Shown piece after piece: positions 43,552 through 64,000 of a stretch of 64,000 nt of DNA. The notes beneath the pieces were generated by a model. The model worked only from the letters and a program-made list of their open reading frames with translations. It was not told where the DNA came from and did not search any database. Origin of the DNA: Parcubacteria group bacterium (lineage in GTDB: Bacteria; Patescibacteriota; Minisyncoccia; Minisyncoccales; UBA10102); assembly GCA_016203945.1 (NCBI GenBank), contig JACQLT010000002.1, positions 797 to 64,796 of the forward strand, written 5' to 3'. How positions within the stretch are numbered: the first letter of the stretch is position 1; each line of letters opens with the position of its first letter. The position numbers and the translations under genes were made by a program.

Positions 43552-45381
43552 TTACCTGTATGAAGGAACAAGGCGGTGCAGCGTATCAACTAAAGATTGC
43601 GATTCAGCTCCTGCCAGGCCTTCTTGCAGATGCCCTAGCCCCTTTTCCAGCAACGCGGCATCCAGGGGCGGAAGCTTCGCTATGAAAATCTTCTGATGCT
43701 GGGTTGCGCTCGTCCCCTCTTCCGCGCTCAGCATTTCTTCAAAAAGCTTTTCTCCGGGTCTCATGCCGGTAAATATGAACTGAATGTCGCGATCCGCTTC
43801 CAAACCCGAAAGACGAACCATTTCCCGGGCTAAATCCACAATCTTCACGGGGCTGCCCATATCAAGCACGAATATCTCTCCCCCTTTTCCCATGGCTGAA
43901 GCCTGCATCACGAGCAGACAGGCTTCGGGATTGGTCATGAAATAGCGTTTCATTTCAGGATCGGTAATCTTTACAGGCCCTCCTCTTTTAATCTGTTCCC
44001 GGAAAAGCGCCACAACATTCCCCCTGCTGTCCAATACGTTCCCAAAACGCACCGCAACAAAACGGGTGCCGCCCTTTCCGGAAAGCTCCTGACAAATCAT
44101 CTCTCCCACGCGCTTGGTAGCGCCCATGACCGAAGTCGGGTTAACCGCCTTATCGGTGGAAATATATACGAAACATTCAGTCCCGAGTCTTCCGGCAATT
44201 TCTGCAACGATTCTCGTACCTAATATATTCGTTCGCACGGCTTCTGCGGGATCGGCCTCCATTAATGGTACATGCTTGTAGGCCGCGGCATGAAACACAA
44301 TATGTGGCTGCCATTGCTTGAATACGCGCTCTATTTTCTGCTCATCGGTAATATTGCCCACGCATGAAATAATGCGTACGTGAGAAAACCGCTCATTGAG
44401 CTCTTGGGCGAGCATGAATATCCCGCTTTCATCTTGATCAAGGAGCACAATGACTGAGGGCGCGAATGTTGAAACCTGACGGGCAAGTTCAGAACCAATA
44501 GAGCCTGCGGCTCCGGTAATGAGTACAATTTTTTCACGGAGAAACCGGGAAAGCGCGTCTGTATCCAAAGATACCACTTCTCTTCCGAGAAGATCCTGTA
44601 CCTGCACGTCCCGCACGTCTGCAAAAGAGACCTTTCCGTCAAGGATCTCTCCCAGAGAAGGCAACACTTTCATGGTCTCAATCTGGGCTTGGCGTCCAAG
44701 CTCCACCGCTCGCTTTATGGCAGAGGAAGGGGCCGAGGGCATCGCAATGATCATCTCCTGGATTCCGTACTGTTTTGCGACAGCAGGGATATCAGGTACC
44801 GTTCCCGCAACGCGTACGCCGTGGATGCTCAACCCTTGTTTTCTCTTGTCGTCATCCACAAAACACGAAGGTGTGTATTTTTTCTGGCCGGTCTGCATGC
44901 TTCGCAGCAGCTGTTCTCCCGCATCGCCTGCTCCGACGATAAGGACACGGACACCTCCTGCGTTTTGCAGGGAGATATGCTGGGCAATGCGTTTTGCCAT
45001 GCGTATGGCTCCCGTGAAAAAGAACGTCAGTACGTATCCGACGAGCAATGTAGACCTGGGAAGTTCTGCAAACGCCCTCACGCCCTGGACGCTCACGACA
45101 ATGGTGGTGATCAACAGGAACCCGCCGGTCACGGCATACCAAAGCACAAGCACATCTCTCGTGCTCACGTGACGCCAGGAGAAAGAATACAGGCGGGCCC
45201 AAAGGAAAACAGGGAGAATCGCGGCCCAACCCAGCACGATCATGACGGGCAATGTTAGATAAAGATGTACAGCCGGAATCATTCCGTCAAAACGCAGAAA
45301 GAACGCAAGGAAAAATGCGAGCGCTATAAACAGCGCATCACCGAATAGAAACAACAGGGTTCTTGAAATCCTCTGAGTCAT
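43552..45381 (-). CDS. membrane-anchored polysaccharide biosynthesis protein (CapD/WbpM/PglF-type UDP-HexNAc 4,6-dehydratase)
   Basis: Four N-terminal TM helices, VLIVGAGDAGEQL and VLITGAAGSIGSEL Rossmann motifs. Confidence 0.85.
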   Translation of the reverse strand: MTQRISRTLLFLFGDALFIALAFFLAFFLRFDGMIPAVHLYLTLPVMIVLGWAAILPVFLWARLYSFSWRHVSTRDVLVLWYAVTGGFLLITTIVVSVQGVRAFAELPRSTLLVGYVLTFFFTGAIRMAKRIAQHISLQNAGGVRVLIVGAGDAGEQLLRSMQTGQKKYTPSCFVDDDKRKQGLSIHGVRVAGTVPDIPAVAKQYGIQEMIIAMPSAPSSAIKRAVELGRQAQIETMKVLPSLGEILDGKVSFADVRDVQVQDLLGREVVSLDTDALSRFLREKIVLITGAAGSIGSELARQVSTFAPSVIVLLDQDESGIFMLAQELNERFSHVRIISCVGNITDEQKIERVFKQWQPHIVFHAAAYKHVPLMEADPAEAVRTNILGTRIVAEIAGRLGTECFVYISTDKAVNPTSVMGATKRVGEMICQELSGKGGTRFVAVRFGNVLDSRGNVVALFREQIKRGGPVKITDPEMKRYFMTNPEACLLVMQASAMGKGGEIFVLDMGSPVKIVDLAREMVRLSGLEADRDIQFIFTGMRPGEKLFEEMLSAEEGTSATQHQKIFIAKLPPLDAALLEKGLGHLQEGLAGAESQSLVDTLHRLVPSYR

Positions 45382-46511
45382 GACAGTAGATCCATGCTCT
45401 CTTGAAGAGCTTTGATTACCCTATGTTGCTGCTGGGGCTGAAGCACCGAAGAAAACGGCAACGCAATCGTCCTGTCGCCAACCCACTCCGTATGCGGGAA
45501 CTTTCCGAGCTTGGACCCGAATGCCTGACGATAGAACGGCTGCAGATGAATGGGCTCAAAGTATGTGCTGCACTGCACCCCTCTTTTTGCCATGAGTTTC
45601 ACAATCCTATCCCGATGAGATTTCGTAAAAGGAGGGGTGAGCATGAGCACGTATACGAACCAGCTTCGTTTCGCGCCGGGCCTGGAAACCGGAAGGATGA
45701 CCCGCTTCTCTTGCGAGAGCAGACGAGAGTACAACGAGGCGGCTCTTGCTCGTTTTTGCAACATCCCTGGCAGGCGCTTGAGCTGCGCCAACCCCAGGGC
45801 GGCCTGCATCTCTGTCATCCGGTAGTTGTATCCCAATCTCACGTGCCCCAGCCAAGTATTCTTTCCCTGCTTTCTTCCTTGATTCGTCATGCTCCGACAG
45901 AGATCCGCAATCCTCTTATCGTCAGTCAGCACCATCCCTCCTTCTCCGGTGGTCATCTGCTTGTTCGGATAGAAAGAGAATATGGCGGCATCTCCAAATC
46001 CTCCGCACTTCTTGCCTTTGTATATGGCCCCAATGGCTTCTGCAGAATCCTCAATAACCTTCAACCGGTATTTCCTTGCGATGCGCAAAATCTCATCCCA
46101 CGCGGCTGGTTCGCCGAACACGTCTACCGCCAAAATCGCTTTCGTCCGCCCTGGGCGAATCACCTTCTCTATCTTTGCAGGATCAATATTAAATATGTCT
46201 TTTTCAATGTCCACGAATACGGGCGATGCCCCCACGTACAGGATACAGTTGGAAGAAGCGATGAAAGAAAACGAGGGCACGATCACCTCGTCCCCTTTGC
46301 CGATCCCCAATGCAGACAAGGCAAGATGCAGCGCCGAGGTTCCGGAGTTCACGGCAACGGCATACTTCCTGCCAGCCAGCCGCGCCATGCCCTTTTCAAA
46401 TGTCGATATCTGGGGACCCGAACCCATGGAAGTCAGAATGGGCGTTTTCAATACATTCTGCACCGCCGTGCGTTCGGCTTCTGTAATGTCTGGGGAAGAA
46501 AGGGGAATCAT
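45378..46511 (-). CDS. DegT/DnrJ/EryC1/StrS-family sugar aminotransferase (PglE-like)
   Basis: AVNSGTSALHLAL and SFYPNKQMTTGEGG (PLP-Lys region). 4-nt overlap with the dehydratase gene. Confidence 0.88.
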   Translation of the reverse strand: MIPLSSPDITEAERTAVQNVLKTPILTSMGSGPQISTFEKGMARLAGRKYAVAVNSGTSALHLALSALGIGKGDEVIVPSFSFIASSNCILYVGASPVFVDIEKDIFNIDPAKIEKVIRPGRTKAILAVDVFGEPAAWDEILRIARKYRLKVIEDSAEAIGAIYKGKKCGGFGDAAIFSFYPNKQMTTGEGGMVLTDDKRIADLCRSMTNQGRKQGKNTWLGHVRLGYNYRMTEMQAALGLAQLKRLPGMLQKRARAASLYSRLLSQEKRVILPVSRPGAKRSWFVYVLMLTPPFTKSHRDRIVKLMAKRGVQCSTYFEPIHLQPFYRQAFGSKLGKFPHTEWVGDRTIALPFSSVLQPQQQHRVIKALQESMDLLS

Positions 46512-46528
46512 GAATGGCTTGTAGCTTC

Positions 46529-46930
46529 TTAGCTTTTTAGCTTTTTGATGACTCGAGCGGGAATTCCAAATGCGACCGCGTTGGCAGGAATATCCTTATT
46601 GACAAAACTGAATGCTCCCACAATGGCTCCTTTGCCTATCGTAACTCCTGGCATGATGAGCGAATGAGATCCGATGCTGCAGTTTTTTTTCAGCACCACT
46701 TTTCCTTCTTTTTGGTCAATCGTAGATACGGAATAAATGGAACAATGGGATCCTATTTGGGCCTCGTCCTCAATAACCACCCCGTATTTTGCATTGATAT
46801 AGGTAAAGGCACCGATATCGGTTTTCTTCCCAAGCTTCAAGTTCTTGGCGTGCTGGACCAGCCAGTGATATTTTGTCGGTCTTCCCTCCCGTATGGTCGG
46901 ATATTTCCAGCGAACAAATCGGTCATTCAT
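46529..46930 (-). CDS. hexapeptide-repeat acetyltransferase (PglD/WbbJ-like)
   Basis: Left-handed beta-helix repeats IGSHCSIYSV / IGSHSLIMPGVTIGKGAIVGAFSFV. Confidence 0.8.
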   Translation of the reverse strand: MNDRFVRWKYPTIREGRPTKYHWLVQHAKNLKLGKKTDIGAFTYINAKYGVVIEDEAQIGSHCSIYSVSTIDQKEGKVVLKKNCSIGSHSLIMPGVTIGKGAIVGAFSFVNKDIPANAVAFGIPARVIKKLKS

Positions 46931-46935
46931 GGCGT

Positions 46936-47550
46936 TTATTTATAGTCTTCAACAACCCCTTTCGCCCCGTATTGGCCTTTTCCCAATAGCACGATTATAG
47001 CCGTATAGAAGAGAATTTTCAAGTCAAGAAAAATGGACCAGTGCTCAATGTACCATACGTCCCACCGAATGCGCTCTTTCCAGGAAAGCGTGTTCCATCC
47101 TTTCAGCATCGCCATATTCGCTATTCCGGGTTTTACCAAAAGACGCTTTCGTTCTGATGCGGAATATTGGGCCGCCTGATGCGGAAGGGCGGGCCGCGGC
47201 CCGACAAATGACATCTCCCCTTTCAAAATATGGAAGAGTTGAGGAAGCTCGTCAATGCCGAATCTCCGGAGTATCCGCCCGACCCAGGTGATGCGAAAAT
47301 CATTTTGCTCCACCTCAATCCCCCTTCCCATATTCACCGCGTTCTCTACCATCGTCCGGAACTTCAGCATTCTAAACACCTTCCCGTCTTTCCCCACCCG
47401 TTCTTGGATGAAAAATATAGGGCCTCTGGAGTCTATCCTGATGAGAATTGCGATAATAAAAAAAGGGATCGCAAGCACGACGAATATCGCTAATGCCGCG
47501 AGAAGATCAAATACTCTCTTGAGAAATCTCTGAAATCCCATCATATGCAT
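46936..47550 (-). CDS. polyprenyl-phosphate sugar-1-phosphate transferase (bacterial sugar transferase, PglC/WbaP-C type)
   Basis: FFIQERVGKDGKVFRMLKFRTM and GIDELPQLFHILKGEMSFVGPRP. Confidence 0.88.
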   Translation of the reverse strand: MHMMGFQRFLKRVFDLLAALAIFVVLAIPFFIIAILIRIDSRGPIFFIQERVGKDGKVFRMLKFRTMVENAVNMGRGIEVEQNDFRITWVGRILRRFGIDELPQLFHILKGEMSFVGPRPALPHQAAQYSASERKRLLVKPGIANMAMLKGWNTLSWKERIRWDVWYIEHWSIFLDLKILFYTAIIVLLGKGQYGAKGVVEDYK

Positions 47551-50339: not shown

Positions 50340-50873
50340 TCACCGAATATATCCATGTCCTTTCAGATAATCAAGAATCTTTTGCTTGTTTTCTTCGATG
50401 CTCGCAGTATCCGTATGAAGTTCTATGTTCGGGTTTTCTGGAAATTCGTATGGATCGGAAACTCCGGTAAAATTGGGGATCTCTCCTCTCTCTGCTTTTT
50501 TATACAACCCTTTTTTATCTCTCTGTTTACAAACCTCCAAAGAGCAACTGCAGAATACTTCAATAAAGTTTTGAACCTCCTTCCGCACCCCTTCCCTCTG
50601 CGCCCGATACGGAGAGATAAAAGAAGCTATCACTCCGACACCATTTCGACTCAGCAACGCGGCAAGAAATCCAACCCGTCTGATATGTTCGTCGCGATCC
50701 TCCTTTGTAAAACCGAGGTCTTTCCAGAGGTGCTTGCGCACAAGGTCTCCGTCCAAGCGTTCTGCAAGATACCCTCTTTGCTTGAGCTCTTCCTCTACTC
50801 GGTCTCCCAGAGTTGTTTTTCCAGAACCTGAGAGGCCGGTAAGCCAAAGTACAAATCCTTTTTGCATGTGCAT
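50340..50873 (-). CDS. cysC: adenylyl-sulfate (APS) kinase
   Basis: WLTGLSGSGKTTLG, LDGDLVRKHL, VIASFISPY. ATG 50873 lies just after the upstream stop. Confidence 0.9.
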   Translation of the reverse strand: MHMQKGFVLWLTGLSGSGKTTLGDRVEEELKQRGYLAERLDGDLVRKHLWKDLGFTKEDRDEHIRRVGFLAALLSRNGVGVIASFISPYRAQREGVRKEVQNFIEVFCSCSLEVCKQRDKKGLYKKAERGEIPNFTGVSDPYEFPENPNIELHTDTASIEENKQKILDYLKGHGYIR

Positions 50874-50877
50874 GTTC

Positions 50878-51714
50878 TTACTCTTCTCTCGTGGAAAGTT
50901 TTTCTGGATCTTCAATGCCCTGAAGTTTCATCAACTCTGCGTTCAGGGATTCTCCGGCTTCGTGTAATCTGAGCTCTAAACCTTTTTCTCTTGCAAAATG
51001 AATGAAAGCCCGCATATCTTTTGGAAAACATTTCCCTCCGTAGCCCCGATATCCGCTATGGCGCACATCAAGATGACTCTGCCCAATGCGAGGATCAGCT
51101 CCTGCACATTCTCTGACCGCTTCATAGTCAATGCCGAGCTGCTCGCAGAGGTCTGAAAGTTGGTTTGCAAAAATCACTTTGAGGGCCAAAAATGTATTGC
51201 CAAAATATTTCACCATTTCTGCTTCCTCTGCCTTGATTATTCTTGCAAGTGGCGCGCGAGGAAGCATCTCTAAAATCTGCTGGGCCGCTCCTTGGCTTTT
51301 CTCTGTATATCCAACAATCTGTCGCAACGGATGCAGCATATCTTCCAGCGCTCTACTCTCTTGGAGGAACTCGGGGTTGTAGAGAAACGTATGGTGAGGA
51401 TATGCCTCTTGCAGCCTGGCGGTGGTGCCAGGCAGCATAGTTGATTTGAGTACGACCACTTTTTGCCCTCCTATGTTGCGGCATGCCTCCTCTACAAAAG
51501 ATAGGTCTACTTTTCCTTCTTTGGTGGAAGGGGTGGGCACACAGACAAACATTACGTCTGCCTTGTTTAGTTCTTCAAGAGAACCCATTCGCTTTGGGGG
51601 ATCATACAGCAAAGGAGTCATGCCCTCCCCTTGAAAATAGTCGGCAAGCGCCCTTCCCACGGTTCCCACGCCAATAATTCCTATGCTCACACCGTTGTTT
51701 TTCTTATGGGGCAT
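50878..51714 (-). CDS. UDP-glucose/GDP-mannose dehydrogenase-family protein lacking the C-terminal domain
   Basis: IGIIGVGTVGRAL, NPEFLQESRALEDMLHP, catalytic-Cys context GYGGKCFPKD. Only 278 aa. Confidence 0.7.
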   Translation of the reverse strand: MPHKKNNGVSIGIIGVGTVGRALADYFQGEGMTPLLYDPPKRMGSLEELNKADVMFVCVPTPSTKEGKVDLSFVEEACRNIGGQKVVVLKSTMLPGTTARLQEAYPHHTFLYNPEFLQESRALEDMLHPLRQIVGYTEKSQGAAQQILEMLPRAPLARIIKAEEAEMVKYFGNTFLALKVIFANQLSDLCEQLGIDYEAVRECAGADPRIGQSHLDVRHSGYRGYGGKCFPKDMRAFIHFAREKGLELRLHEAGESLNAELMKLQGIEDPEKLSTREE

Positions 51715-52624: not shown

Positions 52625-52632
52625 ACCCGTCT

Positions 52633-52661
52633 ATAATGGAGCAGGAACGTAAAAAAGTCAA
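52633..52661 (-). promoter_or_regulatory. internal promoter TTGACT-N17-CATTAT, 8 nt from ATG 52624
   Basis: rc of 52656-52661 = TTGACT and rc of 52633-52638 = CATTAT. Confidence 0.4.
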
Positions 52662-52673
52662 CCGCTCTTTCCT

Positions 52674-54104
52674 TTAAAATGAGGTGCCAGAAGGCCAATA
52701 GCGATCTTCTAGAAAGCCAAAGTTCGTACTAAAGTACAGGTCAAAGAGGAAGCGGAAGGTGTTCACCGCGCTCCAGGATTCTGGAGGGACTTCGCTTTTT
52801 CCAGGAAGCAGGAATGCTGAAAAGTTCCTCAGTTGGAGCTTTGCACGTTCCTCGTCATTCTCCACCCACTCTTTGGGCAGATGCACCCCGTGATCTGATT
52901 GAATAACGACTATGGGAGGCGTGGAACCCGCAGCCGCAAGAATGGTATCCACCGCTTCCTTGAACTTCTTGTCGGCAAACTTGAGCTGCCCCAAGTAGAG
53001 CTCCATGTCGCGGGGAGTATCCTTCTGCCCCGGATTGTTGCCAATGTACTCTCCGTTCTCTCCGAACACATAGGGTATGTGAGGAATGAGGATGTGGACA
53101 ATGACAAACTTGGGGCCAGGGAGTTTTGTTGCTTTCTCAATGTCGGAAAATGCGTTCAGCACTTTGGTCCGGGGATTCATAAGGGGCCCCAATGCGGTCA
53201 TGCTTTGTACGATGCGATGGAAATCGCTGCTGGTGAAGCGCACGTCGGCCTCTTCTCCTGTTATTACAGAGGAGCCAGAACCTACAAATACGAATTTGTA
53301 CCCTCGCTCTTTCAAAAAACTTGCCGCCTTGTTCTGTTCGGCGAGTTGCCTTGTGTAGGAAAGGTCGCTGGAAGAGAGATACTCCATGTTGAAGGTAGAG
53401 GGTAGGGAGAATCTCGTGGAAGGATAGTTGCTCAAACTATTCTCCACAATATGGAATCCTCTGCTCTCAAGCTCTTCACGGAAAGCGCTATCGTCATATC
53501 CGAAGAACTCAGAGAGTATCTCGGAGTTCGCGCGGCCGTCAGGAATGAGGTAGTAAATGTCGGGAAGAGCTGCCTCGGCGCTCAAAGGCGCGGACGGCAG
53601 AGTTTGCGAGGAAATATCTTGACGGTAAGTAAACTCATACGCAACCAGGTTCCCGATCGGAAGAAGCAAGAGCAGAATAAGCGCAAACGAAAGAGGTTTT
53701 GAAATAGGGCGCAAGGTAGCTCGCCATTTCAAGGAAACAAGAAGCAAAACTCCCCACAAGAACGCCCAGAGAACTATAAGGGTTCTATTTCGCGAAAACT
53801 CTCGCAAAAATGCGCCCTCCTTGGCAAACAAGCCAAAAAGAGATTCATAAAAAAATCCATAGTACCAAAAAGCGCATATAAACAAAGAGGCAAGAAGAGA
53901 GGCGCTACATATCTCTCTTTTCAATATATGCGCAAAAAAGAAAAATGCGATAAGCGCGCTTGCGCCGGCAGCAAGCAGAGGAAACCAAAGCTCTCCGTAC
54001 AAAAGTTCCTGGCGATTGTGGCTAAAAAGAAAGAGGACCGGAAAAAGGGCCAGAGCAAGTGGCGGAAAGAGCGCTGAGAGGATAGAACGGAACTTTATAT
54101 TCAT
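52674..54104 (-). CDS. polytopic membrane protein with C-terminal alkaline-phosphatase-superfamily (sulfatase/LtaS-like) domain
   Basis: Multi-TM N-terminal half. C-terminal PDIYYLIPDG..., FVIVHILIPHIPY, VVIQSDHG. Confidence 0.7.
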   Translation of the reverse strand: MNIKFRSILSALFPPLALALFPVLFLFSHNRQELLYGELWFPLLAAGASALIAFFFFAHILKREICSASLLASLFICAFWYYGFFYESLFGLFAKEGAFLREFSRNRTLIVLWAFLWGVLLLVSLKWRATLRPISKPLSFALILLLLLPIGNLVAYEFTYRQDISSQTLPSAPLSAEAALPDIYYLIPDGRANSEILSEFFGYDDSAFREELESRGFHIVENSLSNYPSTRFSLPSTFNMEYLSSSDLSYTRQLAEQNKAASFLKERGYKFVFVGSGSSVITGEEADVRFTSSDFHRIVQSMTALGPLMNPRTKVLNAFSDIEKATKLPGPKFVIVHILIPHIPYVFGENGEYIGNNPGQKDTPRDMELYLGQLKFADKKFKEAVDTILAAAGSTPPIVVIQSDHGVHLPKEWVENDEERAKLQLRNFSAFLLPGKSEVPPESWSAVNTFRFLFDLYFSTNFGFLEDRYWPSGTSF

Positions 54105-55480
54105 ATTTTTTTCATAAGATAGAGGATGCGGTGGGAATCAATAACCTGCTCTTGGCGAATGATGCGAAAGAATTGTGAAAATGCTTCTTCAAAATGCTCC
54201 TTGGTATAAGAAGGAAAGATATCATCCCTTGAGCGAAGCAGGAACTGCGCGTTTGAATCTTCCTTTGGCACAAACTCAATGACCAAGGCGGAACAAATGC
54301 GAGAGAGAAACTTTGCAATTTCCCCAAAGGGAACATTGTTGGAAATGGCAAGATGGTGCAAAAGGGCCAAGGCAAACACCATATCGGCAGGGCCGCGCTC
54401 TGCCAAAGACATCCGTTCTTCTCCTGCCCAGCCCAGAGACGAGCTTGGGTTGGTAAAATCCATAAGCAGAGGCAAAAGATTCGTCTCTTTGCGCATTTTC
54501 ACCTCATGCCAATTCTTCTCAACGGTTTCGTGGTCAATATCAAAGGCAACGGTGGAGACCCCGTTTCCAGACGCAATTCTGCTGAACACCCCGGTATTTG
54601 CCCCCAGATCCCAGACCGTCTTTGGAGAAATTTCCTCCACTACCGCTTTTATAAAGTCCTTCTTTGCCTGAAATGCCTGACTAGAATAGTTTGTTTCTCC
54701 GTAGTATTCCCCCCATTCGCTCCTTTTGCTGCTCAACTTCAAGCCCTCCACTGCGTCTTTCAAGCTTTCTAAAAACGCGGCGAGCTGAGCTTTGGAAAGC
54801 CGAGGAGTTTTTTTCTTCTCTGCTCCCTTTTCGTATCGTTTTTGAAAAGCGGCATGAATGCGAAGATGCGAAAGAAGAGAGGGTTTAAAATTGCTGGAAA
54901 ACGGCAAAAGGGAACTGGCCAGGTCCAAGGGAATGCCGTCAATAAAAACTCTCATGAGCTGACTTAATCTCACGTCTCTCTCGCTCATCAGGGCCAAGGG
55001 GGCCAAAAAATGACGGCAGAACTGGCCGTAGGCAACCCACGGTGTTCCCTCCTTATGGAAGTCAAAGGAAAGGGTGTCTATGAACATCGCCTTTCCCTTG
55101 AAAAACTGAATGTTGTAGCAGCTCGCGTCTTTGAGCGTCATGCCAAACCGCAATGCAATCTTCTGCACGGCCAGCGTGGCAAGGGCAGCTGCCTTGAGCT
55201 GGCTGAAACACCATTCGTAAGGATACGAGATGAACGGAATAACCCGCGGCTTGAGAATCTTATACGCTCCTTGCATGCGTTGCAGCGCTTCTCTCAATTC
55301 TTCATGGGGCAAGAGAAGGTTTTTTCCGACCAGAGCCTCGTACAAACCAGAGCTCATAAGATGATCGTACTGCGCTTTATAGGCAGGAGCTACCATGCGA
55401 TAGGGCTCTCCCTTTTCATAAAAAAGAAAGCCGCTGGGATCTCGAAAGCTTCCTTTATCTCTCGAGTTGATCGTTGTCAT
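54101..55480 (-). CDS. two-domain class I SAM-dependent methyltransferase
   Basis: C-terminal VWDLGANTGVFSRIAS (motif I) and LALLHHL. The N-terminal ~270 aa belong to an unassigned domain (GSFRDPSGFLF). ATG 55480 is preferred. Confidence 0.7.
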   Translation of the reverse strand: MTTINSRDKGSFRDPSGFLFYEKGEPYRMVAPAYKAQYDHLMSSGLYEALVGKNLLLPHEELREALQRMQGAYKILKPRVIPFISYPYEWCFSQLKAAALATLAVQKIALRFGMTLKDASCYNIQFFKGKAMFIDTLSFDFHKEGTPWVAYGQFCRHFLAPLALMSERDVRLSQLMRVFIDGIPLDLASSLLPFSSNFKPSLLSHLRIHAAFQKRYEKGAEKKKTPRLSKAQLAAFLESLKDAVEGLKLSSKRSEWGEYYGETNYSSQAFQAKKDFIKAVVEEISPKTVWDLGANTGVFSRIASGNGVSTVAFDIDHETVEKNWHEVKMRKETNLLPLLMDFTNPSSSLGWAGEERMSLAERGPADMVFALALLHHLAISNNVPFGEIAKFLSRICSALVIEFVPKEDSNAQFLLRSRDDIFPSYTKEHFEEAFSQFFRIIRQEQVIDSHRILYLMKKI

Positions 55481-55706
55481 CGCGCTTTCTCCTAAACATT
55501 CCGAAAATCTTTCTCCAATAGATTTTGAGCATATAGAGAGCGCCCGCAAACGTCGCTATGACAACCTGCACCACCATGCTCCCCGTCCCAGGATCAAGAT
55601 ATGCCTCGGCCCAGGCAGGCAAAAGGATGAGGGTGAGGAGGAACGAAAGGAAAGAAAATATACGCATAGAATACATCATAGTATCACTCTTTTGAAATAG
55701 GGGCAA
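55455..55706 (-). CDS. small membrane protein with YLDPGTGS motif
   Basis: Two hydrophobic helices and a basic tail. Start uncertain (several Met in the first 14 codons). Confidence 0.45.
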   Translation of the reverse strand: MPLFQKSDTMMYSMRIFSFLSFLLTLILLPAWAEAYLDPGTGSMVVQVVIATFAGALYMLKIYWRKIFGMFRRKRDDNDQLER

Positions 55707-55709: not shown

Positions 55710-57097
55710 TTATTGGGTGGACAATTGATCTTCAAGAAAAGGATAGCACTGATCTTCAAGAAATCCAAAGTTGGTGTCAAAGTAGAGGTCAAAGAGAAAA
55801 CGGAAGGTGTTCACCGCGCTCATGTCAGAGGGAAGAGCAGCATCTTTTCCGGGAAGATAGTATGCCCCAAAGTTTCGTAATTTTCTCCGTGCGCAACCTT
55901 CCCGGATCTTGAACCCTTCCACATACGTTGTTCCATGATCTGACTGGATAATCACCACCGGGGGTGCTGAACCTGAGGCCGCAAATATTTTTTCTACCGC
56001 CTCCATGAGCTTTTTATTCGTAAACTTGAGTTGCTCAAGATATGACGAATCAATAGCTTCTCCGTTCTCGCCAAAAATAAATGGCGCGTGAGGAACTAAA
56101 ATATGCGCCATCACGAACTTTGGACCCTCAATCTTTGCCGCCTTTTCTATGTCGGAAAACGCACCCAGTATTCTGCCCCGGTGATCAATAACATGGCCAA
56201 GTACGGTTATGCTCTGCACGATGCGGTAGAAATCATTATTCGTGAAGTTAATGTCTGCCTCCTCTCCTGTCATCATACTGGAACCCGACCCTATAAATAT
56301 GAACTTGTACCCTTGTTCTTTGAGAAACCTTATAACCTTGTTATTTTCGGCAAGCTCTCTCGTATTTTCAAAATCGCTGGAAGAAAGATACTCCATGTTG
56401 AGAGTAGAAGACAAGGAAAGGTGTGTAGCGGTGTAGTTGCTCCTACTGTTTGTAACCACTTGAAAGCCGCGAGAACGCAGATACCCAAGAAATTCCGCGT
56501 TGTCATATTCAAGAAATCGCTTGAGAGCTTCGGAATTTGCATAAGCATCGGGAACGATGTAGTAAATGTCGGGCAGCGCCCCCCCTCAGAGGACGAGGAG
56601 AGAAGCGTATGTTCCGGAGATATCCGGCGGTGAGTAAGTTCATACGCCGCTAAGTTTCCAATCTGCAGAAGTAAAAGAACTCCAAGGGTGAAAGATAGGG
56701 GTTTTAGAATTTTATGCCAATGGGTTTTTAATCTGACAGCGACAAGAAATATAGCTCCCCATACAAAACCCCAGACCAATAGAGATGTTCTTTGACGCGG
56801 AAAATCCCGCCAGAAAACTCCTTCGACGTCAAATAACCCGGAAAGTCTTACGTAAAAAAATCCATAGTACCAAAAAGCGCACATGAGGAGAGAGGCAACA
56901 AGAGATGCGAAAAACACATCTCTGGTAAAAATCCTCGCCAGGAAAAATACGGCAAGGGCGCCAGCTGCACTCAAAAAGAGGGGAAGCCAGAGCTCTTGGC
57001 GCAAAAGCTCCTGGCGATTGTGGCTGAAAAGAAAAAGAACTGGGAATACGGATATGGCAAGACAGGGGAAGAAAGCTATAAGCGTCTGTTTCTTCAT
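55710..57097 (-). pseudogene. frameshifted paralogue of the 52674-54104 membrane transferase
   Basis: ORFs 56330..57097 and 55710..56459 align to the N- and C-terminal halves of the 476-aa protein. The frames meet at a G7 run (C7 on plus, 56579-56585). Confidence 0.8.
56579..56585 (-). repeat. homopolymeric G7 tract at the frameshift point
   Basis: TCT GAG GGG GGG CGC as sequenced. G8 (or G5) would read ...SEGGALPDIYYIVPD, matching ...AEAALPDIYYLIPD of the paralogue. Confidence 0.85.
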
Positions 57098-59428: not shown

Positions 59429-60384
59429 TGGAGTAAATAATCAACTACTTTTTTTATCCCCTCTTCTAAGGAAACTTTTGCCTGATAGTGCTCTTTCATT
59501 CTTGTAATGTCCGCAAAACGGGATTTCACTCCTTCGGGTTTGTCTTCAAGATTCTTGATTGCAGGACTATATCCCGCGTATCTTGCAGCAAGTTCTGCCA
59601 CGTCTCTGAATGTGTTGGAAACACCCCTTCCCAAGTTCATCGTCTCGTATCCCCGCAATTTCGGAAGGTAGGAAATAATGGCTTCCACGATATCGTCAAC
59701 ATAGATAAAATCGCGCGTCTGTTTTCCGCTTCCCCATATAACCAGAGGGTCTTCTTTGTTCGCCGCGCGAGCACAAATGGCAGGCACAGGATAGCTTGGG
59801 TCCTGATCTTCCCCGTATCCCGAGAAGGGACGAGGGCAGAATACGTTCAAATCGTAGTGCTTCGCAAAGGTAGAGGCGAGAAATTCACCGCTCAATTTAC
59901 TCCAGCCGTATACGAGATCTGGCATTCCGAATCTGGAGCAAAGAGCTTGAAGATCGACAAGGTCCTCTTTCAAGGCAATACCCTTTTCTTCGCCGTCTTG
60001 AAGATCAATGGGATATATGGCGGGAGAACTCATATAGACAATTTGCTTTGGCTTGTGCTGGGTAGCCCATCTGAAAAACAAAGCGTCTAATTCCAAAGAG
60101 TGGGCGTTCAGCGCCGGTTTCCCTTCCATTACCGCCCTTCCTCCCACTACTGCCGCAAGATGTATGACAAGATCATACTGCTGCTTCTCATTTTTTAGAT
60201 AATCTCTTATGTCTGCCTGCACAAAATGAACGGGGGCTTTCAGGTGCAAAGGCCACTGGTCGGGATGCAGCCCTGTGCTCAGGTCGTCCACCAAGACAAT
60301 ATCGCAGCTGCGTTCTGCAAGATATCGCGCAAAGTGCCTGCCCAAAAATCCGCATCCGCCCGTAATAAGCACTCGCTGTTTCAT
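59425..60384 (-). CDS. NAD-dependent sugar epimerase/dehydratase (SDR)
   Basis: VLITGGCGFLGRHFARYL, YGWSKLSGE (YxxxK). ATG 60384 is preferred. Confidence 0.85.
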   Translation of the reverse strand: MKQRVLITGGCGFLGRHFARYLAERSCDIVLVDDLSTGLHPDQWPLHLKAPVHFVQADIRDYLKNEKQQYDLVIHLAAVVGGRAVMEGKPALNAHSLELDALFFRWATQHKPKQIVYMSSPAIYPIDLQDGEEKGIALKEDLVDLQALCSRFGMPDLVYGWSKLSGEFLASTFAKHYDLNVFCPRPFSGYGEDQDPSYPVPAICARAANKEDPLVIWGSGKQTRDFIYVDDIVEAIISYLPKLRGYETMNLGRGVSNTFRDVAELAARYAGYSPAIKNLEDKPEGVKSRFADITRMKEHYQAKVSLEEGIKKVVDYLLQ

Positions 60385-60398
60385 AGAGATGTATTTTA

Positions 60399-61535
60399 CT
60401 ATAGGAAGTCCCACTGAGCAAGAACTTTTTTAATATCAAAATCAAAAGCCCTTTGCCGCGCTTTTCTTGAAAGCTCTGCCAATTGGACCGAATCCGTCAA
60501 AAGGTCAGCAATGGCTTTTGCAAGCAGCTCTTCATCTGTCGCTTGAACCAGCAAACCATATTCTCCCGCCTCAATTCCTGTTGCCTGTTTTGTTATCGGA
60601 GTGGAGGGGGCCAAGATCTCACGTGGTCCCGATTTGCAGTCAAACGAGACGATAGGAAGTCCACACGCCAAGGCCTCAAGAAGGACGTCGGGCAGGCCCT
60701 CCCAAAGAGACGAGAGCGCAAACACCTTTGCCCGTGCAAGAAATCGAAATGGATTCTCTTGCCATCCGAGAAAGTGAACCGAATCCTGTATACCCAACTC
60801 GTGCGAAAGCTCCTGCAAAGAATCCTTCAGAGAACCTTCTCCCAGAAGCACCAACTGAGCTTGCGGAATCTTTTTTTTCACTTGTGTAAAAGCTCTCAGA
60901 AGTTTTCCGTGTGCTTTCTGCTTTTCCAAGCGGCCCATGGCAATAATCACGGGGGAGGCAAAGAGCGATTCGTATTCCGGGCCAAGGGGCTCTTGCGCTA
61001 AGGCCTGGAGTTTTGCCACGTTCACCGGATTGTAAATCACTCTGATCTTTTCTGCAGGAATGCGGAAGTTCTTCTCAAGATCCAGCGCAATGGCTTTAGA
61101 AACCGCTACAAGGAGGTGCGCCTTTTTGAAAAAGAAACGCACAAAGAGTTTGAATGGAAGTTGTCTCCATCCTTTCCTGCTTCCTGAAATGTGCATGTCC
61201 ACGCGAACTACCGAACGAGGGTGCGCGAGAATGCTTATGGCATTTGCCGAAGCTCCCGCCGACACCACGCAATCCGGCTTCTCTTGAGCAAGCACCTTGA
61301 GGAATCTCAGCCAGCGCACAAAAAACCGAAAGAAGCGCGAGAAGAGGTTTTTGGAGATCGGAGAATCCAAGCTGATAAGCTTCCCTCGATAGGGATAGGA
61401 TATCTTTTTCTCAAACACCACAATGACAGGTTCCATAGACTCCGGGAGCGCGAGCGAAACCTCGGAAATAACGCGTTCGGCTCCCCCCCGAAAGAGCGTG
61501 GGGATCAAAAAAAGGATTTTTTTCTTTTGCGGCAT
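60399..61535 (-). CDS. glycosyltransferase family 4
   Basis: LIPTLFRGGAERV, WEGLPDVLLEALACGLPIVSFD. Confidence 0.88.
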   Translation of the reverse strand: MPQKKKILFLIPTLFRGGAERVISEVSLALPESMEPVIVVFEKKISYPYRGKLISLDSPISKNLFSRFFRFFVRWLRFLKVLAQEKPDCVVSAGASANAISILAHPRSVVRVDMHISGSRKGWRQLPFKLFVRFFFKKAHLLVAVSKAIALDLEKNFRIPAEKIRVIYNPVNVAKLQALAQEPLGPEYESLFASPVIIAMGRLEKQKAHGKLLRAFTQVKKKIPQAQLVLLGEGSLKDSLQELSHELGIQDSVHFLGWQENPFRFLARAKVFALSSLWEGLPDVLLEALACGLPIVSFDCKSGPREILAPSTPITKQATGIEAGEYGLLVQATDEELLAKAIADLLTDSVQLAELSRKARQRAFDFDIKKVLAQWDFL

Positions 61536-62794
61536 AGGTCTTTCAACGTAGAGAAGGTGCGTTCCGAACTCTTCCCGTCTTGATAGGTATACGTAAGCTC
61601 TCGCACCTTTTTTCGAAAAAGAGCATACTCGTCTTTTCCCTCCCGGATATCCTTGAGCGCGTCAAGAAGCTCTGGAAGGGTTTTTGCTTTGGGACCCGGA
61701 GTAATTTCCTCGTAGGGAAAATACAACTCTCGATCTTTCGTCACATACTTTTCATAGTCAAATGGAAAGAATATGATGGGGCGATCAAGTAAAAGAAATT
61801 CAAAATAAATGCCAGAGTAATCAGTCACCAATATATCTATGGAAGAAAGCAGGGGGTCCGCGTCAGATTCCGGATTCACGAATATGATATTTTTGTATTC
61901 TCTACCCCCCCTGGCATTGACCGTGGCCTGTGCCTGCGCCAAAGGATGAAGTTTTAAAAAGAAAAAAAGATTCTCTTGTGCAAGAAATTCGTCCAAGCGA
62001 AGTAGGACATCTGGCTTTTCAAAGAATGAATCCCCTCCCGTATCCCGCCACGTGGGAGCGTACAAAATCGTCCTTGGCAAAGATGATTCTTTTTTGAGTT
62101 GTTGCAGCTTAACAAGAACTTCTGGATCTGCCCCCACATCAGCTCCCGGAATATCCTTAAAATAAATATCGTTCTTTGGAAATCCCGTCACAAACACCCT
62201 TTCCTTGGTAATGCCAAAAGCGCTTGTAAAAATTTTTTGGAAGACCGGCGAGGTTGCCACCATGTAATCTGGCTTGCGGAATCTCCAGGGAAGAAGAACA
62301 TGGTAGAGAACACTGGACAGGCCGCGGGAACGCCAGAGTTTCATTTCTGCAGAATTGCCCTTAGTTACGTCCTGCTCAATTTTTTTTAATGGAATGCCGT
62401 GCCACAAGAGTATTTCTTTAGCTCCTCCAGAAAGCCAAAAAGAAACGGTTTCAATTGAGGCGTCCACTATGAAGTATCCCGCTCGAAGACAACTCCAAAC
62501 GCCGCGAAAAGACCAAAAAAAGACAGTGGGGTATCCTTTTGCTTGAAGCTCCCGCATAAGTGTTCTGTCTCTCGAAATCCAGAGAGGCTGTACTTCTTTC
62601 AAGTTTTTATTTCCAAGACAGAGAAAAAGATACTTACTGCTCCACGTGAACTTTCTTGGAATGCCAAAAACCCATAAGGTGCTTTTTCGCGGAAAGAAAT
62701 GAGAGAGGCCATACACCAAAAACAAAAAGGGGTGTGTCAACAAATGCGCTCCGTATCTTTTGATTTTCGTGAAGTAAACCGTATTCATGCGCAA
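61505..62794 (-). CDS. CDP-alditol (glycerol/ribitol) phosphotransferase, TagB/TagF family
   Basis: ILYAPTWRDTGG, FFLKLHPL, ILVTDYSGIYFEFLLLDRPIIFFPFDYEKY. Confidence 0.8.
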   Translation of the reverse strand: MRMNTVYFTKIKRYGAHLLTHPFLFLVYGLSHFFPRKSTLWVFGIPRKFTWSSKYLFLCLGNKNLKEVQPLWISRDRTLMRELQAKGYPTVFFWSFRGVWSCLRAGYFIVDASIETVSFWLSGGAKEILLWHGIPLKKIEQDVTKGNSAEMKLWRSRGLSSVLYHVLLPWRFRKPDYMVATSPVFQKIFTSAFGITKERVFVTGFPKNDIYFKDIPGADVGADPEVLVKLQQLKKESSLPRTILYAPTWRDTGGDSFFEKPDVLLRLDEFLAQENLFFFLKLHPLAQAQATVNARGGREYKNIIFVNPESDADPLLSSIDILVTDYSGIYFEFLLLDRPIIFFPFDYEKYVTKDRELYFPYEEITPGPKAKTLPELLDALKDIREGKDEYALFRKKVRELTYTYQDGKSSERTFSTLKDLCRKRKKSFF

Positions 62795-62803
62795 TATCCT
62801 GCA

Positions 62804-63523
62804 TTATAGGGCTTTCCTCCTGAGAATTTCAGCTCCTTTTTGCAGATCGTCAAAATCGTCTACCTCCATACAAAGCTCGTTCTTCTGGAAGTACACGGGG
62901 GACAGAGGGAATTGCGGAGACATCTCGTTGAATGCATGCTCTGCGTATTCCTTGGTCCTCCCCTCTTTCACAAACTGGCCAATCGCCTCCATCCACGATA
63001 CAAAGTCTTCCTGTCGCAGTTTATAAAGAGGAGCCAAAAAACGGAGGCCATCTCCTGTAAGCCTCACATCAATCTCTGTAATGAGCCCGTCTTTGATCCT
63101 CGCGTTGAAGTCCTTTGCAGAAACCTCGGTCTTGTGCACAAGAACCCCAGAGACCTTCTGGTCTAACAACCTTCCAAGCAGATGGGGCTCAAAAAGCACA
63201 TCGCTGTGGAACAGAAGAATATCGTCTCCCGCCATAGCATCCCTGGCAAGCCACATTGAGTAAATATAGTTTGTATTTTCATAGTCAGGGTTCCTCACAT
63301 ACGCCGGGGATAGAGAAGGGTAGTTGGCGGCCATAAACTTCTTCAACATATCTTCCAGGTGTCCTGTAGTGAATACAATATCTGTAATGTGATATTCCAA
63401 GAGCGTATCCACGATGCGACTCAAAAGCTCCTTTCCGCATACCCGAACAAGGGTCTTGGGGTTCTCATCGGTAAAGGGACGGAGACGACTTCCAACGCCA
63501 GAAGCAAGGATCACTGCTTTCAT
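62804..63523 (-). CDS. sugar/alcohol-phosphate nucleotidyltransferase (LicC/GlmU-N-like)
   Basis: MKAVILASGVGSRLRPFTDENPKTLV (G-x-G-x-R-x-x-P signature). Confidence 0.8.
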   Translation of the reverse strand: MKAVILASGVGSRLRPFTDENPKTLVRVCGKELLSRIVDTLLEYHITDIVFTTGHLEDMLKKFMAANYPSLSPAYVRNPDYENTNYIYSMWLARDAMAGDDILLFHSDVLFEPHLLGRLLDQKVSGVLVHKTEVSAKDFNARIKDGLITEIDVRLTGDGLRFLAPLYKLRQEDFVSWMEAIGQFVKEGRTKEYAEHAFNEMSPQFPLSPVYFQKNELCMEVDDFDDLQKGAEILRRKAL

Positions 63524-64000
63524 GTGATTTCCTTCAGAATGAGGCGGAGGGCTTCTATGGTAAGGATGCGGGGATTGTTTTTTACACGCTCGGGGTTGAA
63601 CCCGTTCTCCACAATGAGATTTACGTCTTCTTCTGCACGAACGCCGAGCCGAGAGAGTCGGCGTTCTAAATGAATCTCGTCCATAAGCTGCTCAAGTTTC
63701 TCCTTCGCTTCCCTGCCATCCCTTGCGCCAAACAAGTTCACTAATTCAGCCATGGCTTTCTTAACATATACCACTCCCCTGCTGTCGTTGAGGCTTTGTT
63801 CATCAGCCTCGCTGTTGAAAAGAATCATGCTCGGCAATGTAAGAGCGACTGCGTGCCCGTGCGGAACTCCAAAATACGAAGTAAGGGGATACGAAATCGC
63901 ATGGCACGCCGTGGTAAAAGAGATGTTGATTGCTTTGCCGGCCAAGTGCGCGCCTTTGCTCATTGCACCTCGTGCTTCAGGGGTCGGGGTATTCACCGCA
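63520..64000 (-). CDS. iron-containing (group III) alcohol dehydrogenase family protein, 3' part only
   Basis: FTTACHAISYPLTSYFGVPHGHAVALTLP is the metal-binding His region of Fe-ADHs. The ORF continues beyond the window end. Confidence 0.7.
   Translation of the reverse strand, partial: AVNTPTPEARGAMSKGAHLAGKAINISFTTACHAISYPLTSYFGVPHGHAVALTLPSMILFNSEADEQSLNDSRGVVYVKKAMAELVNLFGARDGREAKEKLEQLMDEIHLERRLSRLGVRAEEDVNLIVENGFNPERVKNNPRILTIEALRLILKEIT

Follow-up and report, generated by a model that had tools for sequence, protein, structure and literature searches.

At the end of a 64,000-nt stretch of DNA from a Parcubacteria group bacterium, an ultra-small organism of the groundwater type (contig JACQLT010000002.1 of assembly GCA_016203945.1, positions 797 to 64,796; hereafter the window), an unbroken series of 20 minus-strand genes with surface-glycan functions occupies positions 43552-64000, one of the genes being split by a frameshift. 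Three genes form its upstream end, coding for an iron-type alcohol dehydrogenase (Fe-ADH), a nucleotidyltransferase, and a TagF-like transferase, and we think it likely that this trio is the visible end of a cassette that tailors the glycan with 2-hydroxyethylphosphonate (HEP), with the TagF-like enzyme as transferase. The glycan itself would be assembled on a polyprenyl phosphate carrier, and for the proposed pathway as a whole we estimate a probability of about 0.6. Because the trio is syntenic with genes of relatives in which the Fe-ADH gene is preceded by genes for phosphoenolpyruvate (PEP) mutase and for phosphonopyruvate decarboxylase, decoration with a phosphonate appears more likely than decoration with an alditol phosphate, which an earlier note on this DNA had suggested, probably wrongly.

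Gene order in relatives connects the upstream trio with phosphonate synthesis

We compared the window with the corresponding loci of relatives (L004 to L014, L043, L049, and L050). The closest syntenic relative found is L013, a 13-kb Logan contig that carries a homolog of the GT-C-type glycosyltransferase (GT) and has its gene order in common with the window over nine genes. L013 begins with a Capsule_synth-like gene, a cytidylyltransferase-PEP mutase fusion, phosphonopyruvate decarboxylase, Fe-ADH, and an opposite-strand NUDIX gene, after which come the TagF-like enzyme, GT4, a short-chain dehydrogenase/reductase (SDR), GT-B, GT-C, a small membrane peptide, a methyltransferase protein, and an enzyme of the alkaline phosphatase (AP) superfamily. 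Identities to the window are 77% for Fe-ADH, 56% for the TagF-like enzyme, 55% for GT4, 72% for the SDR, 82% for GT-B, about 51-52% for GT-C, 76% for the small membrane protein, 71% for the methyltransferase protein, and 53% for the AP enzyme.

The two genes upstream of Fe-ADH pass their equivalog cut-offs in both L013 and L004: the PEP mutases score 395 and 390 bits, respectively, against a cut-off of 319.55, and the phosphonopyruvate decarboxylases 437 and 422 bits against 312.5 (TIGR03297). The PEP-mutase-specific motif EDKxxxxxNS is present in the proteins of both loci. An Fe-ADH homolog is accompanied by a cytidylyltransferase-PEP-mutase gene and a thiamine pyrophosphate (TPP)-dependent decarboxylase gene in L013, L004, L009, L010, L011, L043, and L050. 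In L004 and L009, the TagF-like gene is itself preceded by the cytidylyltransferase (PF01467)-PEP mutase fusion, the TPP enzyme, and Fe-ADH. In L010, L011, and L012, the decarboxylase gene lies directly upstream of Fe-ADH, joined by PEP mutase in the first two and standing at the edge of the stretch examined in L012. That is, at every locus with an Fe-ADH homolog and upstream sequence, phosphonopyruvate decarboxylase comes before Fe-ADH, as does PEP mutase where the contig reaches. For the window, this gene order predicts genes for PEP mutase and phosphonopyruvate decarboxylase shortly after position 64000; no match to the sequence following that position was returned when metagenome contigs were searched with an exact 59-mer.

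The Fe-ADH of the window is a fragment. In L013, the gene for its counterpart has an 8-nt overlap with the phosphonopyruvate decarboxylase gene. With the Fe-ADH of L004, whose phosphonate context is the same, the fragment shares 66% identity, and no homolog above 66% identity was found in the protein collection; a 58%-identical homolog is named 'phosphonoacetaldehyde reductase' by NCBI. PhpC-type Fe-ADHs convert phosphonoacetaldehyde to HEP (PMC8942020), and the enzyme of the window is predicted to be a phosphonoacetaldehyde reductase making 2-hydroxyethylphosphonate. As a separate observation, the Fe-ADH is split into N- and C-terminal open reading frames (ORFs) in several relatives (L004:5105-6228, L010:9573-10468, and L012:1878-2916), and many database homologs of its C-terminal domain measure only 146-260 amino acids (aa) though they are located on long contigs; the split may represent a genuinely split gene or a recurrent frameshift.

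Among solved structures, the nucleotidyltransferase is most closely related to LicC (1JYK, 7e-12) and to the phosphonate cytidylyltransferase PntC of Treponema (6PD1, 8e-10). Its homologs follow or adjoin Fe-ADH in the phosphonate loci L012, L043, and L011 (44%, 37%, and 25% identity, respectively), and in L011 and L012 the NTP_transferase gene comes after Fe-ADH exactly as in the window. Nucleotidyltransferases of PF12804 or PF01467 go with most PEP mutases, and the Fom1 cytidylyltransferase-PEP mutase fusion leads to the cytidine monophosphate (CMP) conjugate of HEP, CMP-HEP (PMC6697681). Judged by family and position, the enzyme of the window is a nucleotidyltransferase of the PF12804 type adjoining pathway genes as in phosphonate cassettes, with a substrate that is predicted only.

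The family profile of the TagF-like enzyme matches TagF (3L7I, 1.5e-33), TarL, and Bcs3. Both catalytic His motifs, WHGIPLK and KLHP, are kept, and H130 (WHG) and H281 (LHP) are invariant and align to TagF. With the named TarF, TarL, and TarB models of NCBIfam, the protein scores 34-111 bits against cut-offs of 500-1000, TarF and TarL being the best of these. Pfam and NCBIfam searches detected no TagD, TarI, or TarJ homologs in the locus. Among one-genome-per-species contigs, its relatives are Patescibacteria at 54-62% identity plus one gammaproteobacterial metagenome-assembled genome (MAG) at 32%, and the 54-62% relatives adjoin the PepM-Ppd-FeADH cassette wherever upstream sequence exists. 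Exopolysaccharides bearing HEP are known to exist (PMC8942020), and we tentatively suggest, at somewhat less than even odds, that the enzyme here is a phosphonyl transferase that takes HEP from its CMP conjugate.

Phosphonate versus alditol phosphate

The trio can also be read in another way. The pneumococcal CDP-2-glycerol route (CDP, cytidine diphosphate) includes an Fe-ADH-type reductase and an NTP_transferase, and the Fe-ADH and nucleotidyltransferase of the window might likewise make CDP-glycerol or CDP-2-glycerol, from which the TagF-like enzyme would add or polymerize alditol phosphate. This would yield a glycan that is teichoic-acid-like or decorated with glycerol phosphate and sits on a primer of the bacillosamine type. 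The Glyphos_transf match (1.2e-66), with TarF and TarL as best named models, is consistent with such an activity. So is a control scan of metagenome contigs with a TagF profile, covering 80 loci: L043 and L050 have the full cassette and L049 the Fe-ADH, but most TagF-like genes at 26-39% identity adjoin a TagD-like cytidylyltransferase without PEP mutase, which argues that the phosphonate link is a property of particular clades, including that of the window, rather than of TagF-like proteins generally. In addition, a nucleotidyltransferase of PF01467 with a HIGH motif (SGGFDPVHIGH) is encoded as a free-standing protein at positions 31577-32050 of the window; it shares 31% identity with the L013 fusion in the cytidylyltransferase domain of the latter, could be TagD-like, and could supply CDP-glycerol. 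Nevertheless, we consider an alditol phosphate unlikely, given the decarboxylase, along with PEP mutase where the contig reaches, in L004, L009 to L013, L043, and L050; the same order over nine genes in L013, the closest relative; a nucleotidyltransferase of the LicC/PntC rather than the TagD type; and the lack of a glycerol kinase or glycerol-phosphate dehydrogenase in the locus.

Beside the TagD-like neighborhoods of the more distant homologs and the free-standing nucleotidyltransferase, several further points weigh against the phosphonate proposal and the pathway around it. PEP mutase and decarboxylase genes are absent from the window by tblastn, synteny being what the phosphonate step is argued from. 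The Fe-ADH matches NCBIfam models at the family level only, no equivalog being passed, and the L013 Fe-ADH reaches 194 bits with TIGR03405 against a cut-off of 424. We found no publication on phosphonate transfer by a TagF-fold enzyme, and literature searches yielded nothing relevant that connects Patescibacteria, TagF, or PF04464 with PEP mutase or phosphonates. Farther down the locus, the acyltransferase is not PglD-like and may be an O-acetyltransferase, and no flippase, polymerase, or ligase is assigned in the visible part; an ATP sulfurylase is lacking among the annotated genes of the window.

Proposed pathway

In the pathway that we propose, the PglF-like dehydratase, DegT aminotransferase, and hexapeptide acyltransferase would convert a uridine diphosphate-linked N-acetylhexosamine (UDP-HexNAc) to a 4-amino-4,6-dideoxy-HexNAc derivative, possibly N-acetylated, which the PglC-type transferase would load onto the lipid carrier. 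Chain extension on the cytoplasmic side would then be carried out by the GT2-GT4 fusion, GT4, and the divergent GT-B, supplied with sugars by two SDR enzymes and a short dehydrogenase-like protein. The adenylyl-sulfate (APS) kinase and the sulfotransferase would sulfate the chain from 3'-phosphoadenylyl sulfate (PAPS), and methylation is probable as well.

As for the phosphonate, PEP mutase and phosphonopyruvate decarboxylase, both predicted past position 64000, would generate phosphonoacetaldehyde, to be reduced by the Fe-ADH to 2-hydroxyethylphosphonate and subsequently activated by conjugation to CMP. The TagF-like enzyme would move the phosphonyl group onto the glycan, just as glycerol phosphate is transferred from CDP-glycerol by TagF. 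Export would depend on a flippase encoded outside the visible part, after which the GT-C and AP-superfamily enzymes would act outside the membrane.

Layout and conservation of the locus

The tight packing claimed for the 20 co-directional genes is borne out by the ORF listing (Table 1): 17 of the 21 junctions are spaced by ≤20 nt, with a range from -130 nt (the overlap between the halves of the frameshifted gene) to +49 nt and typical values of 4-38 nt for overlaps and 3-17 nt for gaps. As the Fe-ADH gene is cut at the window end, the full cluster exceeds 20.4 kb. Pfam and NCBIfam searches of all 20 products reproduced nearly every gene family of the first reading, in the order given there and almost item by item. 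The same does not hold for an internal promoter, which had been placed in the largest intergenic gap: its sigma-70-like sequence matches at 9/12 positions, and the region holds 19 such matches versus 18.1 in shuffled sequences, i.e., there is no enrichment over chance. The locus is a single long gene cluster that may comprise two transcription units.

Table 1. Features of the surface-glycan locus, in transcription order (positions refer to the window)
Feature	Position	Strand	Basis
Fe-ADH, C-terminal ~160 residues	63520..64000	-	translation; synteny
LicC/PntC-type nucleotidyltransferase, 239 aa	62804..63523	-	PF00483, PF12804
TagF-like (Glyphos_transf) transferase	61505..62794 (probable start ATG at 62788)	-	PF04464 1.2e-66
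GT4 glycosyltransferase, 378 aa	60399..61535	-	Glycos_transf_1, Glyco_transf_4
SDR epimerase/reductase, 329 aa	59425..60414	-	PF01370
GT-B glycosyltransferase (divergent GT4), 332 aa	58430..59428	-	weak Glycos_transf_1 8e-9; NCBI MBI4122945.1
GT-C-fold polytopic membrane glycosyltransferase (modeled), 441 aa	57094..58419	-	AlphaFold + Foldseek; homologs with PF13231
Frameshifted AP-superfamily paralog, ORFs 56330-57097 and 55710-56459	55710..57097	-	alignment to 52674-54104
Small membrane protein, 83-aa ORF, two hydrophobic segments, motif YLDPGTGS	55455..55706	-	ORF/translation
Two-domain methyltransferase protein (predicted), 482-aa ORF	54101..55549 (likely start Met at 55480)	-	weak Methyltransf_23; AlphaFold
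Membrane-anchored AP-superfamily (sulfatase-fold) enzyme, 476 aa	52674..54104	-	PF00884
Largest intergenic gap, 49 nt, sigma-70-like TTGACT-17-CATTAT	52625..52673	-	
UDP-sugar 4-epimerase-like SDR, 306 aa	51704..52624	-	PF01370 5e-66
Short UDP-sugar-dehydrogenase-like protein, 278 aa	50878..51714	-	UDPG_MGDP_dh without C-terminal domain
Adenylyl-sulfate (APS) kinase CysC	50340..50915	-	PF01583 5.8e-61
Sulfotransferase, 248 aa	49581..50327	-	PF13469 (Sulfotransfer_3) 2e-14, PF00685; NCBI MBI4122936.1 'sulfotransferase'
GT2 (N-terminal) + GT4 (C-terminal) fusion, 675 aa	47557..49584	-	PF00535 residues 8-170, PF00534 residues 472-639
Small monotopic phosphoglycosyl transferase, 204 aa	46936..47550	-	PF02397 (Bac_transf) 2.7e-62
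Hexapeptide (left-handed beta-helix) acyltransferase, 133 aa	46529..46930	-	PF00132
DegT/DnrJ/EryC1 sugar aminotransferase, 377 aa	45378..46511	-	PF01041 5e-121
PglF/CapD-type membrane-anchored UDP-HexNAc 4,6-dehydratase (substrate predicted), 609 aa	43552..45381	-	PF02719 3.8e-111 + CoA_binding_3

The gene order of the window recurs in L007, L008, and L004, and comparison of these sequences indicates that a core comprising Fe-ADH, the TagF-like enzyme, GT4, GT-B, GT-C, the epimerase, the short dehydrogenase, and GT2/GT4 is kept in other Patescibacteria. Relative to L007, the stretch examined of which ends before the region of the diamino-sugar primer module, the window has in addition the block of AP enzyme, methyltransferase protein, and small peptide and a second SDR, both of which are also in L013, as well as the sulfation pair and the GT2-GT4 fusion. 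The individual gene families are ordinary. What is unusual, in a lineage with such small cells, is to find together a PglF/PglC-type primer, sulfation, a small GT-C protein, an AP-superfamily enzyme, and a probable phosphonate cassette whose transferase is TagF-like.

The primer module is PglF- and PglC-like at its ends

The earlier note had the locus starting with a PglF-E-D-C-like module, which in fact sits at the 3' end in the direction of transcription. The two outer members of the module fit this description well. The best solved relative of the dehydratase is PglF/WlaL of Campylobacter jejuni (5BJU, 2.8e-82), and its N terminus contains a membrane/CoA_binding_3 part with three hydrophobic segments; by homology, it is convincingly PglF-like, with UDP-HexNAc as the predicted substrate. 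The phosphoglycosyl transferase matches PglC over its full length (8G1N, 7.6e-38), nearly tied with the WbaP catalytic domain, and keeps the Asp-Glu dyad (GIDELPQL). Its sequence thus has a PglC-type architecture, whereas its sugar specificity is predicted only.

A DegT aminotransferase and a hexapeptide acyltransferase do lie between them, and here the analogy to PglE and PglD loosens. Among solved relatives of the aminotransferase, perosamine synthetase (3e-76) comes first, ahead of PglE (1O61, 4.5e-40); in NCBIfam, the PseC, LegC, and ArnB models stay below cut-off and no equivalog is passed. The acyltransferase scores 69 bits with the NeuD/PglB/VioB model, whose cut-off is 160.8, and covers model positions 116-202 only; the N-terminal nucleotide-sugar-binding domain that defines PglD is absent from this match. 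Its nearest solved relatives are galactoside/maltose O-acetyltransferase-like proteins, and PglD is not among its 52 PDB matches (E ≤ 1e-5). With its length of 133 aa, the missing N-terminal domain, the score below cut-off, and such relatives, we ruled out an identity as PglD.

A 4-amino-4,6-dideoxy-HexNAc primer is a reasonable inference from the combination of dehydratase, aminotransferase, and small transferase. That the sugar would be of the bacillosamine type, which concerns its N-acetylation and stereochemistry, is only plausible, because the acyltransferase is not PglD-like and the aminotransferase is nearer to perosamine synthetase than to PglE.

Sugar supply, chain extension, and sulfation

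Of the two SDRs, the 329-aa protein has a GDP-fucose synthase-like model as its best NCBIfam match, below cut-off, and the 306-aa epimerase-like protein has GalE and TviC, both also below cut-off; the latter is 64% identical to a protein of L007. The UDP-sugar dehydrogenase had been described as truncated. Indeed, it matches the family in the N-terminal and central domains only: in a 444-aa UGDH, the part that it aligns to spans residues 95-313. The catalytic-Cys motif GGKCFPKD is kept, and the C-terminal UDP-binding domain is missing. Since L007 encodes a homolog of practically the same length (277 aa versus 278 aa in the window; 58% identity), the protein is a conserved short form rather than a fresh truncation, with putative activity; a pseudogene as the only reading of this gene was rejected on the same grounds.

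As for chain extension, the best NCBIfam match of the GT4 enzyme is PglJ (178 bits versus a 500-bit cut-off), and its position is kept in L004-L008, L013, and L014. The two halves of the GT2+GT4 fusion are separate genes in L007. The sulfation genes named in the first reading are present: the APS kinase passes both NF002059 (245 versus 244 bits) and TIGR00455 (238 versus 139 bits), and the sulfotransferase belongs to PF13469.

Export, the GT-C protein, and the question of protein glycosylation

Using Pfam, NCBIfam, and tblastn with five Wzx sequences, we found no Wzx, Wzy, ABC exporter, or PglB-type oligosaccharyltransferase at 43552-64000, in agreement with the first reading. Because the locus is cut at 64000 and L013 has further glycan genes upstream, this absence holds for the visible part. 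In relatives, a Wzx-type flippase (Polysacc_synt) gene follows the GT-C and epimerase genes (L007, L008, L004), and Wzx is also encoded in L011 and L012; in the window, the epimerase and short-dehydrogenase genes overlap by 11 nt with no flippase gene between them. The only protein of the MOP family in the window is MurJ (20922-22427), 22 kb away; at its start, the longest ORF shares ~55 nt with the gene for RNase P RNA (22372-22760), and the true start is probably further downstream. In L013, a KpsC/KpsS-like Capsule_synth gene (L013:2-1024) lies directly upstream of PEP mutase. Judging by that relative, the locus of the window may extend well beyond the phosphonate genes.

The 441-aa membrane protein, previously called GT-C-like, has no Pfam match of its own; its family is Patescibacteria-wide, and some homologs carry PF13231 (PMT_2). 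An AlphaFold model with a predicted local distance difference test (pLDDT) score of 89.6 supports the GT-C fold, as all of the top 37 Foldseek matches in the PDB are GT-C proteins (PglB, STT3, AftB, PMT, ArnT, ALG, and Emb). In the first external loop, the motif G61-x-G63-D64 is nearly invariant. The protein has neither a large extracytoplasmic, soluble domain nor a WWDxG motif, and a PglB-type oligosaccharyltransferase was ruled out on this basis.

One could still imagine Pgl-like protein glycosylation, in which the oligosaccharide on its diamino-sugar primer is flipped and the GT-C protein serves as a minimal oligosaccharyltransferase for proteins at the surface, for example the neighboring PG_binding_1 protein of 572 aa, pilins, or an S-layer. 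PglF- and PglC-like enzymes, a GT4 with PglJ as its best named model, PglB chains as the best structural matches of the GT-C model (E 2e-4 to 3e-3), the absence of Wzy and of a chain-length regulator from the locus, and Wzx beside the GT-C and epimerase genes of relatives would all suit this alternative. We regard it as improbable, considering that the GT-C protein lacks the periplasmic domain and WWDxG of PglB/STT3, that TM-scores are only 0.41-0.51 with ArnT, PMT, and AftB about equal, that all Pgl-specific NCBIfam models fall far below their cut-offs, and that there is no known acceptor.

The small membrane protein encoded downstream of the frameshifted gene shows its 76% identity to an in-frame C-terminal tail of the L013 GT-C homolog, whereas none of the other 43 GT-C homologs has such a tail. 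With the fusion confined to 1/44 homologs, we rejected the idea that the small protein is generally a lost GT-C tail. Its conservation in L013 indicates that the 83-aa ORF, listed in the first reading as a micro-membrane protein, is a real coding sequence.

The AP-superfamily and methyltransferase proteins

The AP enzyme matches PF00884 (Sulfatase) with 30.4 bits against a cut-off of 25, and has at least four N-terminal hydrophobic segments followed by an extracytoplasmic catalytic domain with the motifs DIYYLIPDG, PST, HILIPHIPY, and SDHG. No solved PDB structure matched it by sequence. The 'frameshifted transferase' of the earlier note is frameshifted as stated, the reading frame passing from +1 to +3 within nt 474-528 (approximately window positions 56570-56623), but its identity has to be revised: with 54-58% protein and 66% DNA identity to the gene at 52674-54104, it is an old duplicate of the AP-superfamily gene.

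The methyltransferase protein scores 23.9 bits with Methyltransf_23, below the 27-bit cut-off. Its family is large (1821 representatives at E<1e-30), and 13/40 members match Methyltransf_23. In an AlphaFold model (pLDDT 91.3), the C-terminal domain has its best match in the methyltransferase domain of WbdD, followed by other methyltransferases, and is accordingly modeled as a class I S-adenosylmethionine (SAM)-dependent methyltransferase. The N-terminal ~250 residues match no Pfam family even at E ≤ 10 and no PDB family. They contain an invariant D118-x4-N123-x11-D135, whose residues are spaced as in the catalytic loop and DFG motif of a kinase. Next to a WbdD-like domain, such a pattern hints at a pairing of kinase and methyltransferase in which the order is reversed. 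The kinase reading found no support in Pfam, in hhalign against one APH-like protein (probability 0.2%), or in a PDB profile search, which returned only methyltransferases.

These features bring up a further export route, namely an ABC-transporter-dependent polymer capped in WbdD fashion by the two-domain methyltransferase protein, with the transporter gene outside the window. TagF-like enzymes normally act in ABC-dependent pathways (teichoic acid, group 2 capsule), and such a route would account for the missing Wzx and Wzy. It is favored by WbdD as the best structural and profile match of the methyltransferase domain and by the Capsule_synth gene upstream of PEP mutase in L013; the D118/N123/D135 pattern, too, may recall a kinase catalytic core. 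Yet neither the locus nor its relatives contain an ABC transporter, the relatives having Wzx; the N-terminal domain matches no kinase family; and the WbdD match reflects a generic methyltransferase fold that 901 PDB chains also match. This makes ABC-dependent export a distant prospect, less probable than protein glycosylation, and we keep to export by a flippase encoded outside the visible part.

The locus and its flank belong to one genome

The glycan locus is contiguous and belongs to a Patescibacteria genome. An assembly chimera, with the glycan locus coming from another organism than the housekeeping flank, might be suspected from the guanine-plus-cytosine (GC) content, which is slightly lower in the locus (0.45-0.49) than in most of the flank (0.51-0.54). 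The tetranucleotide correlation between parts of the locus and the flank (0.84-0.90), on the other hand, falls inside the spread of control 5-kb flank pieces (0.88 +/- 0.05), and the junction is a 27-nt gap between co-directional genes. SecA (36766-39234) shows 100% identity to a protein from a 'Parcubacteria group bacterium' MAG (MBI4122926.1), with the next relatives at 86-87% and Candidatus Wildermuthbacteria at ~70%; SecA and seven locus proteins (including MBI4122931.1, the dehydratase, and those ending in 932, 935, 936, 945, and 947) are recorded on one 248,619-nt contig. The locus proteins, too, are nearest to Parcubacteria/Wildermuthbacteria MAGs, and the TagF-like and GT-C homologs likewise come from Patescibacteria MAGs. 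Finally, independent Logan contigs of 1.8-4.1 kb (read sets SRR12113385, 420, 422, and 430) match internal parts of the locus exactly. Base composition, taxonomy of the nearest relatives, and the common contig thus rule out a chimera for practical purposes, its probability being close to nil.

The flank encodes housekeeping functions (MurB, SecA, SecDF, MurJ, LepA, FtsZ, FtsX, GAPDH, PGK, two release factors, RNase P RNA, and four tRNAs). Strand bias across the window (1-64000) is extreme: the minus strand carries 35/37 long non-locus ORFs treated as genes, 4/4 tRNAs, the RNase P RNA, and 20/20 locus genes, the exceptions being a release-factor gene (1889-3022) and an unannotated 211-aa ORF (39301-39936). 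Just 27 nt downstream of the locus and on the same strand, positions 41806-43524 encode a protein of 572 aa that has a hydrophobic segment at its N terminus and a PG_binding_1 domain at its C terminus; it may be co-transcribed with the locus and may serve as a wall-associated partner or acceptor. At 33636-36342, an Orn/DAP-decarboxylase-like gene adjoins a saccharopine-dehydrogenase-like gene, a pair resembling the carboxy(nor)spermidine dehydrogenase/decarboxylase of an alternative polyamine route. A type IV coupling ATPase that resembles TrwB/TraG and has a treble-clef zinc finger is encoded at 25421-27091, amid housekeeping genes. A low-GC patch (0.44-0.47) at 12000-16000 contains genes for a 471-aa protein and a 170-aa four-segment membrane protein, both without a Pfam match.

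What the locus could mean for Patescibacteria

Patescibacteria live attached to or dependent on other cells, and to our knowledge, hardly anything has been learned of their surface chemistry. A conserved locus for a diamino-sugar primer, sulfate, and probably also a carbon-phosphorus (C-P) group that resists phosphonases would offer concrete candidates for a role in recognizing hosts or in fending off phages and enzymes. Beyond this lineage, the cassette of PEP mutase, decarboxylase, Fe-ADH, and TagF-like enzyme, which occurs in several phyla, points to a missing step, that is, the enzyme that places hydroxyethylphosphonate on glycans. If the proposal is true, phosphonyl transfer would be an activity not described for the TagF fold, and the pathway would be the first for a phosphonoglycan recognized in Patescibacteria, with a C-P compound on a sulfated surface glycan that is finished outside the membrane by a minimal 441-aa GT-C enzyme.

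Comparison with known systems

The pgl locus of C. jejuni is the obvious reference for the primer module: it shares with the window a membrane-anchored Polysacc_synt_2 dehydratase, a DegT aminotransferase, a hexapeptide acyltransferase, a monotopic phosphoglycosyl transferase of ~200 aa, and GT4 enzymes (PglA/J/H), all encoded by adjacent, co-directional genes. The window differs in that its acyltransferase lacks the PglD N-terminal domain, its aminotransferase is nearer to perosamine synthetase, and PglK and PglB (the WWDxG oligosaccharyltransferase) are missing, whereas sulfation, a TagF-like enzyme, an AP-superfamily enzyme, and a small GT-C protein are added. Compared with Wzx/Wzy loci, the visible part is without Wzx and Wzy, and Wzx is encoded in the relatives L004, L007, L008, L011, and L012.

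Similarly, the enzymes that would act outside the membrane have familiar counterparts. With ArnT, PMT, AftB, and GtrC, the GT-C protein shares a polytopic GT-C fold and a conserved acidic residue in the first external loop, although it is only 441 aa long and lacks a soluble domain, and neither a polyprenyl-phosphate-sugar synthase nor a small flippase was identified as its partner. Like LtaS, EptA, and OpgB, the AP enzyme is anchored in the membrane at its N terminus and continues with a sulfatase-fold domain containing metal-binding and nucleophile motifs, but it differs in lacking a sequence match to solved structures.

The teichoic-acid and capsule enzymes TagF, TarF, TarL, Bcs3, and Cps3D have in common with the TagF-like enzyme the Glyphos_transf domain, both His motifs, and a lipid-linked glycan context. 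In contrast with teichoic-acid systems, the window has no adjacent TagD/TarI/TarJ-type supply, TagGH exporter, or TagO-type primer, and the nearest homologs of its transferase are phosphonate-linked. Set against the Pnt and fosfomycin pathways (Fom1, Fom2, FomC, PntC/LicC), the proposed transferase has a TagF fold rather than being a LicD-type phosphotransferase, the host is a Patescibacterium, and PEP mutase and decarboxylase are not within the window. What the two share is the arrangement itself: the operons of relatives join Fe-ADH and the TagF-like enzyme with a cytidylyltransferase-PEP-mutase fusion and a decarboxylase, and the window itself has Fe-ADH and a LicC/PntC-type nucleotidyltransferase in the same order.

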